From positions 2,143-66,142 of the forward strand of contig JAQVVF010000004.1 of assembly GCA_028699085.1 (NCBI GenBank): a DNA stretch of 64,000 nucleotides, read 5' to 3'. A program made the position numbers and the translations under genes. Under the pieces are notes generated by a model. It was not told the origin of the DNA, did no database searches, and was given only the letters and a program-made list of their open reading frames with translations. This document shows positions 9,407 through 45,457 of the stretch, piece after piece (the first letter of the stretch is position 1; the number at the start of each line of letters is the position of its first letter). Origin of the DNA: Patescibacteria group bacterium (GTDB lineage: Bacteria > Patescibacteriota > JABMPQ01 > JAQVVF01).

Positions 9407-10135
9407 TTAACCAAGAATGATCTTCAATAAAAGTGCAGTATCCATCAAATTATCAAACAAGTAATCAGGTGTTACAATAGCCAAACTTTCCTTAGAAACC
9501 AAGCCTGTAGCTACTCCAATTGTTTTCAAACCAACAACTTTACCAGCCTCAATATCTCTTGGAGTATCTCCAAACAAATATACTTTTTCTCTCGACGTCC
9601 ATTTATTCTGTTCATTCTTTCGCAATGCTGAAATAATCAAATCCGAACGTCGCAAAGCCTGATCGCCAAATTCGCTAATCCGAGCGAAACGAAATAAACC
9701 AGCCTTGCGCAACTTAAAACGAGCGATACCTCCTATTGCGCCAGTCACAATACCAATCATTACACCTTTCTGAAGAAGTGAAATAAAGAGATCTCTGACT
9801 CCTGGCAGAGGATGAATATCAATATTGGCATTTTCATTTACATAAAAATTGGTCATTTCCGTAAAAATTGCGTACAACATTTCTGGAGTAACAGTTTTTT
9901 CCTTTCTAGATTTTGCCAGCAAAGCATAAATCAATTGGGTATCTGTCAAACCATGATAGTCAATACCTTCCAAAGTAGCATCCCTAATTCCACAAAGCTT
10001 TTCCAAAGCCATAAAAACAGCACGAGCATGACCGCCATTATTGATACCGGACGGAATCAAGGTTCCATCCATATCAAACAAGGCCAATGCCCGGAACATA
10101 TAGTCATTATGACAAAATGCATTCTTTAGCGGCAT
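9407..10135 (-). CDS. HAD-superfamily hydrolase (phosphoglycolate-phosphatase-like)
   Basis: HAD motif I FDMDGTLI. The start is reassigned to the internal Met (MPLKNAF...), which is preceded by a strong SD GGAGGAGGAA. The track start at 10195 would leave no promoter space. Confidence 0.7.
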   Translation of the reverse strand: MPLKNAFCHNDYMFRALALFDMDGTLIPSGINNGGHARAVFMALEKLCGIRDATLEGIDYHGLTDTQLIYALLAKSRKEKTVTPEMLYAIFTEMTNFYVNENANIDIHPLPGVRDLFISLLQKGVMIGIVTGAIGGIARFKLRKAGLFRFARISEFGDQALRRSDLIISALRKNEQNKWTSREKVYLFGDTPRDIEAGKVVGLKTIGVATGLVSKESLAIVTPDYLFDNLMDTALLLKIILG

Positions 10136-24515: not shown

Positions 24516-24770
24516 TTACTCCTTTCTTGACCAAAGACCAATCACAACGATCTTGTGAAAAACACCATCTTTATCCATATAGCCAGGAACGTTACCATCA
24601 GCCCTAAGTTTATCAATCTCATCAAGTAATTCCAAAGCAATTTCAACCAAACTACTGATTGTATTACGATTAACACGAAGCATCAGCCTCTTTATCCAAG
24701 CATGCGCATCAACAGTGAAATCGATTGTTGTACGTATTTTTTTCTGCACTGGTTTTTTCATTCGAGACAT
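24516..24770 (-). CDS. Small ribbon-helix-helix-like protein (paralog A)
   Basis: KKIRTTIDFTVDAHAWIKRL beta-strand plus helix pattern. Strong SD AAGGAGG upstream. Paralogous to the adjacent ORF: shared ..SSL.E.AL...D.LDK....G.P.GY.D..G.F motif. Confidence 0.4.
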   Translation of the reverse strand: MSRMKKPVQKKIRTTIDFTVDAHAWIKRLMLRVNRNTISSLVEIALELLDEIDKLRADGNVPGYMDKDGVFHKIVVIGLWSRKE

Positions 24771-24783
24771 ATCTTTCCTCCTT

Positions 24784-25083
24784 TCAAGGAATGATTATCA
24801 TCAGCTCCTTAAAACTCCCATTGTCATCGCAGTAACCTAATGGCTTACCAGATAATTTTGCTTTATCAAGTGCATCAAATACGGCTAGAGCAACCTGTAT
24901 TGTTTCTGTTAAAGAACTATAACCTCTACGCCTCTGCAAACCAAGCAATAATTCCATATTAGAAATCGGTAATGCCAAATTTAATCTCGTAGTCTCAAAA
25001 GTTTTTTTCAGGCCTCGGCATCTTCTTCCTCCTTGTACAGGTAAACAGCTAATTAGTATAATAAAATATTGACAAGGCGTCAA
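24784..25083 (-). CDS. Small ribbon-helix-helix-like protein (paralog B), start codon uncertain
   Basis: KKTFETTRLNLALPISNMELLLGL...SSLTETIQVALAVFDALDKAKLSGKPLGYCDDNGSF aligns with paralog A. The N-terminal 25 aa of the track ORF are probably not translated. An SD GGAGGA lies internal, with an in-frame CTG and an out-of-frame ATG next to it. Confidence 0.3.
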   Translation of the reverse strand: MTPCQYFIILISCLPVQGGRRCRGLKKTFETTRLNLALPISNMELLLGLQRRRGYSSLTETIQVALAVFDALDKAKLSGKPLGYCDDNGSFKELMIIIP

Positions 25084-25694
25084 GAGAGGACAGGGAAGCA
25101 GTATTTAATTAATTATTTATACTAATTAATTAAGAGAATATAGAATAGTTTGTTAAACCTAAGACAGGATATACCTAAGAGTTACCGAATTATTTATGAA
25201 ATTAATTAAATAAATAGCATAAAAGATTAAATAAAATTTGTTTAAAGTTTGTCATTTTAGAAGAAAGCGCAGAGAGACATCACGTCGCACAATATATCTT
25301 TTACGACGTCTTTACTATAGAGACGACTCCCCTGGACATATTTTATTTTTTTAATTAATTATTATTATATCGTATTTAATAATTAATTATTAAATAATCT
25401 AAACTAACAAACAACCACACTACATTCTTATCACCTGCCTACTCATTTAATTATTTCTATTAATTAAATAAAATAATTAAATCTAACCCTCTGGCTAGAT
25501 CTATACAAACTAAAAATCTCTCCCACCCGTTATTTCCAAAAAAAGAGAGTAGTGTTATAAATAGTTTTTTAATAATTCTTAAATTTTTAACAAAAAACCA
25601 GGTAAATTAATACCTGGTTAGATATATAAAACGCTAGAATCGCCAAATTTTAACAAATTCCTTGCCCGCCGAAGCTTTAGCGAAAACGGATTGA
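25084..25694. repeat. Long (about 610 bp) noncoding region with iterated TAATTAATTATT motifs and a GC-rich core carrying an inverted repeat
   Basis: Exact 12-mer TAATTAATTATT at about 25106, 25352 and 25380, plus related TTAATTAA copies at about 25122 and 25460. Core 25261-25340 is GC-rich with ACGTCG...CGACGT inverted 16 nt apart. No ORF. This is unusual in an otherwise tightly packed window. Confidence 0.5.
25590..25620 (-). terminator. Rho-independent terminator downstream of the M23 peptidase gene (minus strand)
   Basis: AACCAGGTA-aattaa-TACCTGGTT: a 9-bp perfect stem. On the minus strand it is followed by a TTTTTTG run. Confidence 0.6.
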
Positions 25695-39436: not shown

Positions 39437-42001
39437 TTATTGCTTCATATTATCAATATCCATCAAAGTAATTGTATACTCACTTCCTCTTTTAATCTCA
39501 CCAGTTAACATTTTCTTTGCCAAAATATTTTCAACATAATTTTGTATTGTACGCATGATTGGTCTTGCGCCCATCAAAGGATCAAAACCAAGCTCTGCCA
39601 ATCTCTCAATCCCAGGCTCATCAACTCTCAAAAAGATCCCTTTTTCTTGCTCTAATCTTTTGACTAATTTGCCTAACAACATCTTTGTAATTTGCAAAAC
39701 ATGCTCTTTTTCCAAAGGCTTAAAATATACAACAGAAGTAAATCTATTCAAAAATTCTGGCCTAAATATTCCTTCTGCTTGCAAATAATTAATTAGCCTT
39801 TCTTTTAATACAACTGGATCAAGATGTTGTTTTATTCCTTCTTGAATTAAATTAGCACCAGCATTAGAGGTTGCAATAATCATTGCATTATTAAATTTTA
39901 CTTTTCTGCCCAAAGAATCAGTTAGCCATCCTTCATCTAGCATTTGCAAAAACAAATTTAAAATATCTTTATGCGCTTTTTCAATTTCATCAAATAATAT
40001 AACTGTAAAAGGATTATCTTTTACTGCATTTGTTAATTCTCCGCCAGCTTTGGCTTCAGGAGTACCTGGAGGAGGTCCAATCAAACGGTAAACGCCAGAT
40101 AAATCTTGATATTCCGACATATCAAAACGAATCATTGATTTTTCTGAACCAAAATATGCTTCTGCCAATGCTTTTGTAGTTTCAGTTTTTCCAACACCAG
40201 TCGGACCTAAAAATAAAAAACTACCAACTGGCTTATTTCCTGCTTCAACACCAGACCTAGCCCTTCTTAATGCATTAGAAACAACTTTAATCGCCTCCTC
40301 TTGATCAACTACTCGCTTGTGCAAAAAATCCTCTAGATGCAATAACAATTGTTTTTCCGCACCTTCAGCCTCGCCAATCGGTGCCTTAACTTTTTTCTTC
40401 ATTAATGTCTCCACATGTCTCGGCAATACGATTGTTCCTCGACCAAATGCAGATGCAAATACGATTACTTCATTCAATAAATCAATTGCCTTTTCCGGAA
40501 AAGGCTTTGAATACAAAAATTGATCAGCTAATTTGTAAATCGATTTTAAAGCTGGATAACTCATAATTACTCCTCCTTGAGATTCTAACTTTGGAGCTAA
40601 GTCTTCTAGAATTCTTAGGGTTGTATTCTCATTTGGTTCAGCTATATCCAGAATCTCAAATTTGTCAGAAACTGCTGATCTTGTTTCTATGTATTGATGA
40701 AAGTCATCAGAATTTGCCGTTGAAACAAAATATAAATTTGGATTTTCCAAAAATGGCACTAAGACTTGAGAAGCATCAATTGATCCAACCTTTCCTTCTC
40801 CACTTCCAAATAACTTTTGGATATTATCAATAAACAAAACAATATTTCCTGCAACAACAGAATCAGACATTACGGCCTCTAGTCTTTCTATAATCTCGCC
40901 TGGAGTCTGCGCTCCTGCCAACAGCCTATCGACATCCAATTCAATCAGTCTTTTATTAGCCAAACTAGAATATGTAGTTCCTTCTAAAATTCTTTTTGCC
41001 AAACCCAAAACAACAGTTCTTTTACCAACGCCAGGAGCGCCAACTAAAATTATATTGTGATGAGTTGCTCGAACAAGGACATCCTCAATTTGATTAATAT
41101 CTTTTTCATGACCAATAATATGAAAAGAAAGCGCACCTCTCAATATTTCATCCGTTAAATCATGGCCAAACGCTCTTAAAGCTCTCGTGTAGCCATAAGC
41201 CCATTCTCTACCGATGCCACCTTTTCTTTTTATCTTGTCTGGATCAAAATTCTTCTCTTTTCTAAATTTATAAAAAGATGTTTCCCAATGGACAATATTA
41301 GCAATGTCTTCAATTTTCAAATTCAAATCAAACAAAATCTTTTTCATTAAAGGATCAAGAACAGACAATACAACGAAAACATCACCACAGCTAACTATTT
41401 CATGCCCCTCTAAATAACCCACTTCCAAAGCTTTTTCCAATATTTGTGATAAATCAACATATCCTTTTGATTTTCCTGATGCATATTTTTCAACATGTTT
41501 TTCTAAATCTATAACGCTTAAACCAGTACGATTGACAATAAATCTTATTGATTTTACTTTCAACAATTCCAATAGTAAATCAGAAGAATTAACCATGTTA
41601 TTCTTTTTGTCTTCACTCTTCTTCAAGGCATTAGAAATCGCAATCGCTAAATTTATTGACACAAAATCAGCCAGATTTATGTTTCCATTTTTCTTCGCAA
41701 TATCCAAAGCATCTTTTAAGGAAATTATTGGCTTTACATTTTTTACTCCAGATTCATAAAAAATATGGAATGACAGATAGAATAAAGAAATAGCTAGACT
41801 AATAATCGCCAATCCTAACATCCTACTATTAAAATTCAAATTATATAAACTTGAAAAATTATACAAAATGACAAATGCAAAAGAACATATTCCAAGTAAA
41901 TATACAAAAAAAGATAATATTTTAAATATAAAAACTCTTAAGAATTTTACTAATCTTGAATATCTAAAAATTTTAGATTTTCCTTCATCAAATACAATCA
42001 T
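39437..42001 (-). CDS. Membrane-anchored Clp/Hsp100-family double AAA+ ATPase (no M-domain, degenerate D1 Walker B)
   Basis: Two N-terminal TM helices and a Clp_N-like repeat region. D1 Walker A GAPGVGKRT with Walker B VLFIDNIQ (N replaces the catalytic E). D2 Walker A GPTGVGKTE with intact Walker B ILFDEIEKAH. Sensor/arginine-finger regions present. No coiled-coil M-domain and no IGF loop. Confidence 0.8.
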   Translation of the reverse strand: MIVFDEGKSKIFRYSRLVKFLRVFIFKILSFFVYLLGICSFAFVILYNFSSLYNLNFNSRMLGLAIISLAISLFYLSFHIFYESGVKNVKPIISLKDALDIAKKNGNINLADFVSINLAIAISNALKKSEDKKNNMVNSSDLLLELLKVKSIRFIVNRTGLSVIDLEKHVEKYASGKSKGYVDLSQILEKALEVGYLEGHEIVSCGDVFVVLSVLDPLMKKILFDLNLKIEDIANIVHWETSFYKFRKEKNFDPDKIKRKGGIGREWAYGYTRALRAFGHDLTDEILRGALSFHIIGHEKDINQIEDVLVRATHHNIILVGAPGVGKRTVVLGLAKRILEGTTYSSLANKRLIELDVDRLLAGAQTPGEIIERLEAVMSDSVVAGNIVLFIDNIQKLFGSGEGKVGSIDASQVLVPFLENPNLYFVSTANSDDFHQYIETRSAVSDKFEILDIAEPNENTTLRILEDLAPKLESQGGVIMSYPALKSIYKLADQFLYSKPFPEKAIDLLNEVIVFASAFGRGTIVLPRHVETLMKKKVKAPIGEAEGAEKQLLLHLEDFLHKRVVDQEEAIKVVSNALRRARSGVEAGNKPVGSFLFLGPTGVGKTETTKALAEAYFGSEKSMIRFDMSEYQDLSGVYRLIGPPPGTPEAKAGGELTNAVKDNPFTVILFDEIEKAHKDILNLFLQMLDEGWLTDSLGRKVKFNNAMIIATSNAGANLIQEGIKQHLDPVVLKERLINYLQAEGIFRPEFLNRFTSVVYFKPLEKEHVLQITKMLLGKLVKRLEQEKGIFLRVDEPGIERLAELGFDPLMGARPIMRTIQNYVENILAKKMLTGEIKRGSEYTITLMDIDNMKQ

Positions 42002-42741: not shown

Positions 42742-44016
42742 CTACCAAGTCCAATTATTAAACCCCCAACGAAGCAACTTCTCAACTTCACTTGTCACTT
42801 GATAGTACGTAGAAGCTCCAATTACAACCGCAATTATTTCTTGATTATTTTTATCTCTTGCCTTGGTCATCAAATTCATTCCAATTTCTGGCAAATAACC
42901 TGTTTTTCCACCTAAAATATAGAGATTACTATTCAATAACGAATTTGTATTAGTAACACTAATTGTTTTACCTCCCAAGGTTTGATAAGAATAAGATTTT
43001 GTTGTTGATGCCTGCATAATTTTATATTTTTTCAATGCATCAATAGCAACTTTTGCATAATCTTTAGGAGTACAAGCATTCCGCCAATCCAAACCAGTTG
43101 GTTCATAAAAAGTACAAGAATTAGCTCCGACTTTTTTTGCTTTCTCATTCATTTTAACAGCAAAATTTGCATCACTCATTCCTGTTGCATGCGCTAAAGC
43201 ATTGGTTGCATTATTTGCTGATTTTACTAAAGAAGTATACAGCAAATCTTCAATTCTAATTCTATCTCCGACAGATAACCAAACACTCTGGCCTTCTGCA
43301 TCATCCCAAGGCTGATAAGTATAAATTTTATTTAAATCAATTCCAGACTCTAAAACAATATTGGAAGTCAAAATTTTTGTCATCGAAGCTAAAGTCATTT
43401 TTCGATCACAATCTTTGCAATACATTATTTTACCAGATTTAACATCCATCAATACTCCTCCTAAAGAATATATATCTGGGTCAGAAACGCCAGCTTTTTT
43501 AGTTGGCTCGACAATACTCGTTTTATTTTTCTTTTCTAAAACGACAATGTCTAGATCTTCAATATCAGTTTTAATAATTGCTAAATCTTTTTTGTCATCG
43601 ATTCTGCTTTTTAATTCATTCCATCTATTCTCATCAAAATCCCAATAAAATACGCCCTTTTTATTAAATGTCTGTGAATTAAATTTTAATAAAATTTTAA
43701 CCTTGCCTAATAAAACAAAATCATCAGTCTCATTAGAAATCTCATAACGATAGATATTACTGATTGCTTTGTAACCTGTAGGAATTCTATGCTCTTCTTT
43801 CGCTATTTTTTTAAACTTAATACTAATCTGTTCAGCATCAATCAAATTAGCTGGTATTTTTATTTTTACTCTCTTTGATTTGTTAAAAATTTGCTGAGAA
43901 ATAGCTAAATCAGTACTAGATAAATTATGGATTAATCCCCAATCATTTACCTTGGAATAGCCAAAATTAGGCAATATTAGCAAAAATCCCAGGATCAACA
44001 ACAGCTTTTTTTTCAT
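42742..44016 (-). CDS. D-alanyl-D-alanine carboxypeptidase (S11, PBP5-like) with N-terminal extra domain
   Basis: SxxK (LASMTKIL), SxN (KSANNA) and KTG (GGKTGY) motifs. Signal peptide. Confidence 0.75.
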   Translation of the reverse strand: MKKKLLLILGFLLILPNFGYSKVNDWGLIHNLSSTDLAISQQIFNKSKRVKIKIPANLIDAEQISIKFKKIAKEEHRIPTGYKAISNIYRYEISNETDDFVLLGKVKILLKFNSQTFNKKGVFYWDFDENRWNELKSRIDDKKDLAIIKTDIEDLDIVVLEKKNKTSIVEPTKKAGVSDPDIYSLGGVLMDVKSGKIMYCKDCDRKMTLASMTKILTSNIVLESGIDLNKIYTYQPWDDAEGQSVWLSVGDRIRIEDLLYTSLVKSANNATNALAHATGMSDANFAVKMNEKAKKVGANSCTFYEPTGLDWRNACTPKDYAKVAIDALKKYKIMQASTTKSYSYQTLGGKTISVTNTNSLLNSNLYILGGKTGYLPEIGMNLMTKARDKNNQEIIAVVIGASTYYQVTSEVEKLLRWGFNNWTW

Positions 44017-44047
44017 AATATGTATGATTTTTAATTAACAAATAGAA

Positions 44048-44076
44048 TTGACAATAATTTAATTTTGTCCTATACT
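44048..44076 (+). promoter_or_regulatory. Near-consensus sigma70-type promoter (TTGACA-17-TATACT) for the GC-rich Cys-rich gene
   Basis: TTGACA at 44048-44053, 17-nt spacer, TATACT at 44071-44076. Followed by a GC-rich leader with a 5-bp GC hairpin (GCCCC..GGGGC), then SD GGAGGA 7 nt before the ATG at 44138. Confidence 0.6.
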
Positions 44077-44137
44077 CGTTATATGTCGCTGTGAGGAGGC
44101 CCCAAGTGGATAAAGGGGCAAAACGGAGGAAAAGGGA

Positions 44138-44644
44138 ATGGATCTGAAAACTTTCATCTGTGTCGTCTTGTTTGTTGCCGGATTCGGTAGTTTGATTGCT
44201 TACGCTGATAATAATGATGTTGATCGTCTAATCTGTAACGGTGAACAAATTTGTATGCAAGAAATGCAACTTGGGAAAATTGACGAAAGGTTGGAAAGCG
44301 CCAGAGCTGATCTGCAGATGGCTGATAAAGCTTTGGGACAGATGATCCACTATGATGGCATTTGGCCCAAGACTGAAGAATCTCGGGACTGGTATCAAGG
44401 AAAACGCGGACTTGTTTGTTCCACCAATCGCAAAACAAAGCGTGAGATTCCCGTGGTTGAAAGAGATCTCAAAACTCTTCACTTTTCAAACCATGCTGGA
44501 ATTTCTAATCGCGCAAAACTAAAACTAGAAGACATTCAAACTGATCCAGTAATCAAATTCTTCCTCACTGATACGCCATGTCAGCGAGCTGAACAAGCTT
44601 GCAAGCACTTTGGCTGCACAGAGATTATCGAAGGCTCTTTGTAA
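44138..44644 (+). CDS. Secreted Cys-rich small protein, compositionally atypical (about 45-50% GC)
   Basis: Signal peptide MDLKTFICVVLFVAGFGSLIAYA. Six Cys in the mature part. Own promoter, SD and terminator. Segment GC is about 50% versus about 30% background (counted on 60-nt samples). Confidence 0.6.
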   Translation: MDLKTFICVVLFVAGFGSLIAYADNNDVDRLICNGEQICMQEMQLGKIDERLESARADLQMADKALGQMIHYDGIWPKTEESRDWYQGKRGLVCSTNRKTKREIPVVERDLKTLHFSNHAGISNRAKLKLEDIQTDPVIKFFLTDTPCQRAEQACKHFGCTEIIEGSL

Positions 44645-44645
44645 C

Positions 44646-44670
44646 TAACGCTATTCTTAGCGTTTTTTTA
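44646..44670 (+). terminator. Rho-independent terminator immediately after the Cys-rich gene
   Basis: AACGCTA-ttct-TAGCGTT followed by TTTTTTT, starting 2 nt after the stop codon. Confidence 0.6.
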
Positions 44671-44692
44671 TTTGTTTAGACTTAATTTTAGC

Positions 44693-44724
44693 AAAAAAAA
44701 TACAAAGTGTAAAACCTTGTATTC
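44693..44724 (-). terminator. Terminator-like hairpin downstream of nrdG (minus strand)
   Basis: Minus-strand read: AATACAAGG-ttttacac-TTTGTATT then an 8-U run. One G-U pair in the stem. Confidence 0.45.
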
Positions 44725-44734
44725 AATCCAAATA

Positions 44735-45457
44735 TTATCTTTCTTCAATAATCAGATCAGAATATTTTTGCTTTAATTTACTTAATAACAACGCCACATC
44801 AATCTTTTTACTTTGATCTAAATTAGGATCTAAATTTTTAATATATCTAATATTCTGCAGATAATATTTTTCGCCTTTTTTCAAATAGCTTGCCATTTCC
44901 ATAAAATCTTTTTCAACATGCTTCTGAGGATATACAGTTGTTCTAAATTCATGATCAACTCCAGATTCCTGAATTAATCTAAAAGATTTCAGACATTTCT
45001 CCACCAATAATTTACAACTATCAACTGGCAACTTGTTACTAGCAACAACCTCACCATAATTTTGCCAAGAAGATTTCAAATCCATTGCTACATAATCAAG
45101 CAATTTTTTATCAAATAGTTCTTTTAACATCTCTGGATTTGATCCATTCGTATCCAGTTTCACTGAATAATCAATCTTTTTTAACTTCGCAATAAAATCA
45201 ACTAAATCAGTTTGCAAAGTTGGCTCTCCCCCAGTTATACAAATCCCATCTAACATTTTTTTCTTTTCAACCAAATAGCCAAGGATTTCATCCTCGGTTA
45301 TTTGTGATTTATTTTTATTATCAAATACCAATTCTGGATTATGACAGAACGGACATCTAAAGTTGCATCCTTGCAGAAACACTATTGCGCAAATCTTGTC
45401 TGGGTATTCTAACAGGCTCAATTTTTGGAATCCCGCTATTTTCATAGCTATTTTCAT
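44735..45457 (-). CDS. nrdG: Anaerobic ribonucleoside-triphosphate reductase activating protein (radical SAM)
   Basis: CNFRCPFCHNPE radical-SAM cluster motif. Adjacent to nrdD. Confidence 0.85.
   Translation of the reverse strand: MKIAMKIAGFQKLSLLEYPDKICAIVFLQGCNFRCPFCHNPELVFDNKNKSQITEDEILGYLVEKKKMLDGICITGGEPTLQTDLVDFIAKLKKIDYSVKLDTNGSNPEMLKELFDKKLLDYVAMDLKSSWQNYGEVVASNKLPVDSCKLLVEKCLKSFRLIQESGVDHEFRTTVYPQKHVEKDFMEMASYLKKGEKYYLQNIRYIKNLDPNLDQSKKIDVALLLSKLKQKYSDLIIEER

Follow-up and report, generated by a model that had tools for sequence, protein, structure and literature searches.

Braun's lipoprotein Lpp of Escherichia coli is a small and very abundant helical protein of the cell envelope, and its gene is monocistronic and strongly expressed. 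In Bacteroidia, rpsU, the gene for bS21, is an example of a single gene with a Shine-Dalgarno (SD) sequence in an SD-poor genome. The highly expressed genes in the AT-rich, reduced genome of Buchnera aphidicola prefer C-ending codons (PMC1636365). One gene of a Patescibacteria group bacterium resembles each of these three systems in part. It is located on a 64-kb stretch of contig JAQVVF010000004.1 with a GC content of 31.0%, hereafter called the window. The gene, named gene X, is the open reading frame (ORF) of 168 amino acids at 44138-44644 on the plus strand. An original prediction, made from the letters of the window, had described it as a recently acquired foreign island coding for a secreted factor. 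Our analysis favours another reading, to which we assign a probability of about 0.7. Gene X is native to one small clade of Patescibacteria (candidate phyla radiation, CPR), in which it is single-copy and inherited vertically. It codes for an exported protein of an orphan family, has its own conserved expression signals and is not an island.

The likeness to Lpp concerns both product and gene. Protein X is a predicted short, secreted helical protein, and its monocistronic gene combines a strong promoter and a good ribosome-binding site with a 5' stem-loop, a tight terminator and an atypical codon usage. Unlike Lpp, protein X has no lipobox in its signal peptide and no lipid anchor, shares no sequence or family relationship with Lpp, and its abundance is presumed. 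Like rpsU of Bacteroidia, gene X has a conserved canonical SD sequence, a feature that nearly all other genes of its genome lack. In contrast to bS21, the product is non-ribosomal and would be secreted, and no autoregulatory logic is evident. The codon usage resembles the exception reported for Buchnera in having more C-ending codons in an AT-driven genome and in avoiding ATA, TTA and AGA. It differs in that the ribosomal-protein gene of the window is without this bias and in that the shift is missing in two lineages.

Gene X is a genuine protein-coding gene. The ORF of 168 codons was present as predicted, and substitutions between relatives are codon-periodic. In comparison with the 97% identical relative (locus L006), 2, 2 and 21 differences are located at codon positions 1, 2 and 3, respectively. 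The corresponding numbers for the 66% identical relative (L001) are 36, 25 and 77. A ratio of nonsynonymous to synonymous substitution rates (dN/dS) of 0.07-0.24 indicates purifying selection. The annotations of two relatives, P0002 and P0003, include N-terminal extensions. These were rejected as artefacts because the frame is closed in the window by a TAA in the loop of the leader hairpin and because the extension would start at the predicted transcription start.

Relatives were sought in 5.8 billion protein clusters and, by profile, in 1.84 billion representatives. The family members recovered share 97, 66, 57, 47, 30, 26, 27 and 26% identical amino acids with protein X. The profile search of the representatives yielded seven matches: five full-length family members, four of them traced to the same locus type, and two marginal matches to long proteins. 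Neither collection contained a homologue outside the clade, and no relatives were detected in the viral contigs of IMG/VR or in JGI metagenome contigs. A scan of genome contigs returned just the already known metagenome-assembled genome (MAG). MAGs among the relatives are labelled 'uncultured Candidatus Saccharibacteria bacterium' or 'Patescibacteria group bacterium'. The family is undescribed, narrowly distributed and fast-evolving. As a kind of object, a lineage-specific gene for a secreted protein, it is ordinary.

The position of gene X is conserved. It lies between the genes of an S11 D-Ala-D-Ala carboxypeptidase and the anaerobic ribonucleotide reductase activase NrdG, two neighbours that had been correctly recognised and are supported by Pfam. 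The same slot is occupied by gene X in eight further loci: L012, L001, L005, L010, L013/L014, L017, L007 and L009. In all of them the gene is convergent with nrdG, and it is divergent from S11 wherever that flank was assembled. L012 carries an identical X protein, and L017 is a 97% relative by its S11 protein. The synteny persists down to 27-28% identity of the X protein. The wider gene order, M54-ClpB-like-hyp124-BON-S11 / X / nrdG-nrdD, is retained as well. Every S11 orthologue with at least 56% identity and sufficient contig adjoins gene X. The S11 identity then falls abruptly from 56-59% to 34%, and the 34% orthologue is found in another context and without gene X.

Synonymous divergence (dS) from the window amounts to about 1.0-1.2 in both L001 and L010, for neighbouring genes with 77-95% identity. 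The X protein of the window is 66% identical to that of L001, 47% to that of L010 and 28% to that of L007, with neighbouring genes at 66-95%, 77-91% and 43-79%, respectively. The last range covers the neighbours in both L007 and L009. Between these two loci, the X proteins share 28% identity and the NrdD proteins 86.5%. NrdD keeps 77-87% identity where protein X drops to 27-28%. In the comparison with L001, the evolution rate of gene X ties with those of the Cyt-b5 protein and NrdG; in all deeper comparisons gene X is clearly the fastest at the locus. Its dN/dS of 0.18-0.24 is among the highest there, other genes having values of 0.03-0.20.

Gene X forms a monocistronic unit bounded by its own promoter and terminators. 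The sigma-70-type promoter at 44048-44076 (+) has a -35 hexamer TTGACA (44048-44053), a 17-nt spacer and a -10 hexamer TATACT (44071-44076), matching the consensus at 11 of 12 positions. TTGACA and TATAMT are invariant in seven aligned loci, including those coding for 27-28% identical proteins, and are also present in L013. The predicted near-consensus promoter thus exists and is conserved, but a match of this quality is not rare in an AT-rich window: five matches of at least 11/12 were counted in comparison to 6.3±2.6 in shuffled sequences. The divergent intergenic region contains a block at 44017-44047, ATATGtATGATTTTTAATTAACAA..., located upstream of the -35 hexamer and, on the opposite strand, directly before the S11 start codon. 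The block is near-identical between window and L001 despite a dS of about 1, and it is recognisable in L005, L010 and L013. The motif ATATG(t)ATGATTTTTAATTAACAA, directly upstream of the promoter, is retained in the closer lineages.

The predicted 5' leader of about 55 nt (44083-44137, +), its start inferred from the position of the -10 hexamer, comprises a hairpin and the SD sequence. The hairpin at 44099-44119 has five G+C base pairs with the arms GCCCC and GGGGC around a loop of 11 nt. The structured leader that had been proposed is therefore present, but its folding z-score of -0.9 is not significant alone. The same arms with differing loops occur in the window, L006, L001 and L005. In L010 and L013 the arms are GUCCC and GGGAC, one compensatory double change from C-G to U-A. 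This change was read straight from the sequences, since MAFFT had aligned the 3' arm one column off in L010 and L013. In L007 and L009, the hairpin is absent. Promoter and leader hairpin owe their credibility solely to conservation in relatives. The canonical SD sequence anticipated for gene X was found as GGAGG at 44125-44129 (+), with the ATG 8 nt downstream. ACGGAGG is retained in the five loci nearest to the window and in L013; L007 and L009 have GGAGG or GGAGGG. An SD of the GGAGG type is thus present in all lineages. A tight intrinsic terminator follows the stop codon, as expected, at 44647-44671 (+). Its 7-bp stem AACGCTA/TAGCGTT with a 4-nt loop (stem-loop at 44647-44664) precedes a run of seven T. 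The folding energy of -7.9 kcal/mol is significant (z = -3.2). The stem is conserved in L001, L005 and L013, and the loops change.

The SD sequence of gene X stands out in the window. Gene X is the sole ORF with an SD core among 57 main ORFs: none of the 56 others has even a four-letter core (GGAG, GAGG or AGGA) at positions -23 to -4, which bears out the claim that the other genes lack SD sequences. Just three genes were added when GGAGG ahead of a start codon was scanned for: a HAD hydrolase at 9407-10132 (-) and a tandem pair of small ORFs at about 24.5-25.0 kb. The SD positions of the window are 44125 (+), 10145 (-), 24781 (-) and 25032 (-). All three SD-bearing genes besides gene X likewise rank among the GC-richest. 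The genome is essentially SD-free with few exceptions. A literature search on SD usage in Patescibacteria found nothing relevant. The near-lack of SD sequences together with conserved exceptions offers a small, testable handle on translation initiation in this lineage.

The HAD-family hydrolase has 241 amino acids (Pfam HAD_2, E = 1.5e-14), and its GC content of 0.376 is the second-highest in the window. It has a strong SD, AGAAGGAGGAGGAAATG, and a promoter TTGACA-17-TATATT at 10212-10184 (-), a design like that of gene X. The small ORFs at 24516-24770 (-) and about 24787-25021 (-) are tandem paralogues of about 80-84 amino acids, each with a strong SD. They are 25% identical (pairwise E = 4e-9), and a Pfam search gave no match for them. 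The upstream one is broken by a frameshift in a run of seven A (25002-25008), and may be a pseudogene or reflect an assembly error or slippage.

Base composition was part of the island hypothesis, and gene X is a compositional outlier. Its GC content is 0.422-0.425 in comparison to a gene mean of 0.311±0.027 (z = 4.2), and its GC content at third codon positions (GC3) is 0.377-0.379 in comparison to 0.227±0.028 (z = 5.4), with 57 other ORFs scored. The highest-GC stretch of 507 nt in the entire 64 kb begins at 44091 (z = 3.2). The GC content of about 50% that had been reported holds locally, for the 68 nt before the ORF (50%) and the best 100-nt stretch (0.49), but not for the ORF itself with 42.2%.

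The GC excess is made up of amino acid composition, synonymous codon choice and, in part, strand orientation. Re-coding the X protein with the codon usage of the genome gave an expected GC content of 0.360±0.011, which is below the observed value and above the gene mean. The share of Phe, Tyr, Met, Ile, Asn and Lys (FYMINK) is 27.4% in comparison to 38.3±4.9%, the lowest of 57 ORFs. For GC3, the genome codon usage predicts 0.235±0.030, and none of 5000 simulations reached the observed value. Codons TTA (0/15), ATA (0/13) and AGA (2/10) are avoided. The strand matters as well. Third positions in the window are A 0.42, C 0.14, G 0.08 and T 0.36 for plus-strand genes, and A 0.36, C 0.06, G 0.17 and T 0.41 for minus-strand genes. 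Because gene X is a lone plus-strand gene amid minus-strand genes, the contrast of its C3 with the neighbours is exaggerated. A purely gene-specific C3 excess was rejected: according to the same-strand comparison, strand bias accounts for about half of the difference from the neighbours. Gene X is still an outlier among same-strand genes, with A3 0.26, C3 0.22 and G3 0.16 in comparison to 0.42, 0.14 and 0.08 (z = -3.2, +3.6 and +4.8, respectively). The cumulative GC skew falls monotonically over the window, placing it in one replichore, and the genes are split 28 / 28 by strand. This strong strand-specific third-position bias inflates the compositional contrast between neighbours on opposite strands.

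The high GC content is shared by the relatives. In six of seven lineages, gene X has the highest total GC of all genes at the locus (0.376-0.437). The exception is L007, where its value of 0.391 lies slightly under those of two small neighbouring genes (0.394 and 0.413). GC3 is raised in the window (0.38), L006 (0.39), L001 (0.39-0.41, depending on the start codon), L005 (0.50), L010 (0.36) and L009 (0.41). On the two youngest branches, leading to the window and L006, outgroup-polarised third-position changes comprise 8 GC>AT and 8 AT>GC, numbers with low statistical power. Amelioration would be expected to give a ratio of about 2:1, and the balance therefore makes no ongoing amelioration visible. 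A parsimony polarisation of the deep branches (20 weak-to-strong, W>S, versus 12 strong-to-weak, S>W, changes) was discarded as biased; the shallow pair alone was used.

The N-terminus of protein X has the features of a signal peptide, residues 1-23, MDLKTFICVVLFVAGFGSLIAYA, encoded at 44138-44206 (+), with a predicted signal peptidase I cleavage after AYA. The layout is MDLK / TFICVVLFVAGFGSLI / AYA, followed by D as the first mature residue. The hydrophobicity profile places the hydrophobic core at residues 3-13. Ala-21 and Ala-23, the -3 and -1 positions, are invariant in nine of nine family members. We infer from these features that protein X is exported by Sec and cleaved after AYA. The mature protein (44207-44644 with the stop codon, +) has 145 amino acids, 16.6 kDa, an isoelectric point of 5.8 and six cysteines; the cleavage site and the cysteine count had both been described correctly.

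An AlphaFold2 model based on nine sequences had a mean predicted local distance difference test score (pLDDT) of 85.7, with five concordant models at 84-86, a predicted template modelling score (pTM) of 0.73 and a pLDDT above 90 for 120 residues. The predicted helices, residues 37-72, 80-115 and 120-142 with a short C-terminal one at 146-156, form a confidently predicted three-helix bundle. Positions invariant in the family are Gln-41, Tyr-72, Trp-76, Trp-85, Cys-94, Leu-111, Ile-122, Ala-126, Cys-148 and Ala-151. They include the conserved motif Y72-x-G-x-W76...W85. Among the cysteines, Cys-94 and Cys-148 are invariant, Cys-33, Cys-39 and Cys-155 occur in the closer subgroup, and Cys-160 is present in three members alone. 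The invariant positions suggest a disulfide between Cys-94 and Cys-148 and an aromatic cluster at the first turn between helices. The bundle is thus probably stapled by the Cys-94-Cys-148 disulfide, judged from residue conservation.

Searches for known families did not identify the protein. The best Pfam match was DUF5564 with E = 0.09, under its cut-off, and NCBIfam contained no match that was significant or shared between members. Among PDB sequence profiles none was significant; the best (E = 0.006) was a SNAP-25 coiled coil over 36 residues, a low-complexity helical match. The Foldseek structure search retrieved generic helical bundles only, none with E < 0.1. The spectrin repeat, PhoU, the BAG domain and the cytosolic domain of CorA are generic three-helix bundles like the model of protein X, with 4-15% sequence identity. 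These bundle proteins are cytoplasmic, whereas protein X has a signal peptide and conserved cysteines.

These observations can be assembled into a model of a native gene. Gene X would be transcribed as an autonomous unit from its own sigma-70 promoter, with a leader stem-loop, a rare SD sequence and a terminator. The product may pass through Sec, lose its signal peptide after AYA and fold into a three-helix bundle of about 16.6 kDa. Most likely, it would be abundant and extracytoplasmic, with a role in the cell envelope or at the interface to a host or neighbour. This role is suggested by a product that would be exported and abundant and that evolves rapidly, and by the conserved linkage of its gene to the cell-wall carboxypeptidase operon. 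The GC-richness could reflect a protein that is the least AT-driven in the window, with codons that also resist the AT pressure of the genome. The synonymous shift from A-ending to C- and G-ending codons would resemble that described in highly expressed genes of AT-rich reduced genomes. In ultra-small uncultured bacteria that depend on cell contact, gene X can reasonably be considered a candidate surface or host-interface factor, worth targeting by metaproteomics.

Several points weigh against a native gene under selection for its presumed high expression. If selection on gene X is strong, a protein that evolves this rapidly is unusual. In L013 and L007, the GC3 of gene X (0.31 and 0.29) is about that of the same-strand GT2 control, so that these lineages have no synonymous excess. 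L9, the sole ribosomal-protein gene in the window, has a GC3 of 0.15 and no SD, and therefore provides no evidence that expression generally raises GC3 here. A further-reaching version is put forward as a tentative suggestion, with the odds clearly against it. It holds that gene X is among a handful of genes with privileged expression, keeping SD, consensus promoter, 5' stabiliser hairpin and GC-shifted codons under selection in a genome that has all but given up SD-based initiation, and that its fast-evolving, disulfide-stapled product is the dominant secreted or surface protein of the clade, acting at the interface to a host or partner or in the cell wall with the S11 operon.

An ancient transfer into the ancestor of the clade is compatible with the data, and we consider it unlikely. 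The gene would have come from a GC-richer, SD-using donor, keeping part of its foreign composition and the imported signals, and the donor family would no longer be recognisable. This would account for the strongest GC and GC3 outlier of the window, for an SD in an SD-less genome and for an orphan family confined to the clade. It would fit the raised GC content of the remaining SD-bearing genes (the HAD hydrolase and the two small ORFs) and a GC3 that ranges from 0.29 to 0.50 among the lineages, as uneven amelioration would give. The searches of 1.8 billion representatives, 5.8 billion clusters and viral contigs, however, revealed no donor or outside homologue. Even the closer lineages are separated by about one turnover of their synonymous sites, the deeper ones by more, and yet the recent changes in the window and L006 are balanced. 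The invariant promoter and SD indicate current selection and not a relic. About 40% of the GC excess resides in an amino acid composition that is conserved in the family.

Recombination is an improbable source of the GC content. A fast-evolving surface gene could be exchanged between strains, and GC-biased gene conversion would raise GC3 without selection on expression. Gene X does diverge fastest at the locus, both C3 and G3 are above the same-strand genes, and the size of the GC3 excess differs among lineages, all of which speaks for such a process. It leaves the amino acid part of the GC excess unexplained, the dN/dS is well under 1, and the gene is flanked by AT-rich intergenic DNA of high conservation.

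A recent insertion of a single-gene island between S11 and nrdG, as a mobile toxin, bacteriocin or effector, is all but excluded by the synteny. Its support was the atypical composition and the self-contained expression signals. The original prediction had named beforehand the presence of the gene at the same locus in relatives as evidence against a recent acquisition, and gene X sits in the same slot in every relative recovered: eight of eight related loci, from 97% to 27% protein identity. Target-site duplications, for which a check of the flanks had been suggested, were not found, and the search for them and for inverted repeats around gene X yielded only chance-level A/T-rich matches. The lone flanking repeat is a 14-nt A/T-rich match with one copy within the S11 coding sequence. 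That no recombinase is visible was correct: no recombinase, integrase or transposase ORF flanks the gene, nor does a tRNA, and ARAGORN detected no tRNA in the 64-kb window. The suggested toxin or bacteriocin role finds no support: the gene is monocistronic, without immunity or export partner, and has S11 and nrdG as neighbours in all lineages, and viral or outside homologues are missing. A false lead is thereby removed, as an atypical GC content along with good signals for expression was in this case no sign of recent horizontal transfer. That the GC-rich stretch is or contains a structured non-coding RNA or antisense gene, and that the 168-codon ORF is incidental, is hardly credible: GC-rich islands of AT-rich genomes are often RNA genes and antisense stop-free runs of 94 and 84 amino acids overlie gene X, but Rfam gave no match for the stretch with gathering or permissive thresholds, even at E <= 1, the fold of the 590-nt transcript is not unusually structured (z = -1.15 versus shuffles), the length and frame of the antisense runs are not conserved among orthologues, and the substitutions follow the sense frame.

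The neighbouring genes belong to conserved blocks. The S11 carboxypeptidase, with an N-terminal extension, is encoded at 42742-44016 (-), divergent from gene X (Pfam PF00768, E = 5e-43). It heads the conserved block S11-BON-hyp124-ClpB-like-M54 (-), which is the same in L001, L007, L010 and L013. A candidate S11 promoter, TTGTCA-16-AAAAAT, is located at 44054-44027 (-), and its putative -35 hexamer would overlap with that of gene X at 44048-44054. Due to this overlap, both divergent units may compete for RNA polymerase. An S11 mRNA from the candidate promoter would have a leader of just a few nucleotides.

On the other side, nrdG is encoded at 44735-45382 (-), convergent with gene X, and nrdD follows. 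Pfam identified Radical_SAM and Fer4_12 domains. A terminator at 44690-44724 (-; -10.8 kcal/mol, z = -3.95) belongs to the convergent nrdD-nrdG operon and not to gene X. Equivalent hairpins with other stem sequences are present in L001 and L013. The spacer between the terminators of gene X and nrdG is about 25 nt in the window, and L001, L005 and L013 have an extra 70-150 nt of AT-rich sequence.

A few further observations were made in the window. The stretch at 25084-25694, about 600 bp, is free of ORFs and very AT-rich, with TTAATTAA-like repeats and slightly GC-richer flanks; it had no Rfam match. The likely start of nrdG is 45382 and not 45457, in agreement with gene calls of 215 amino acids in L012 and L017. 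The start of the longest ORF (45457) would overlap nrdD by 100 nt. The ClpB/ClpC-like double AAA+ protein of the S11 block (39437-42001, -) has 854 amino acids and is kept at 71-92% identity in all related loci. Its first 90 or so residues resemble transmembrane segments, by which the protein would be anchored in the membrane.

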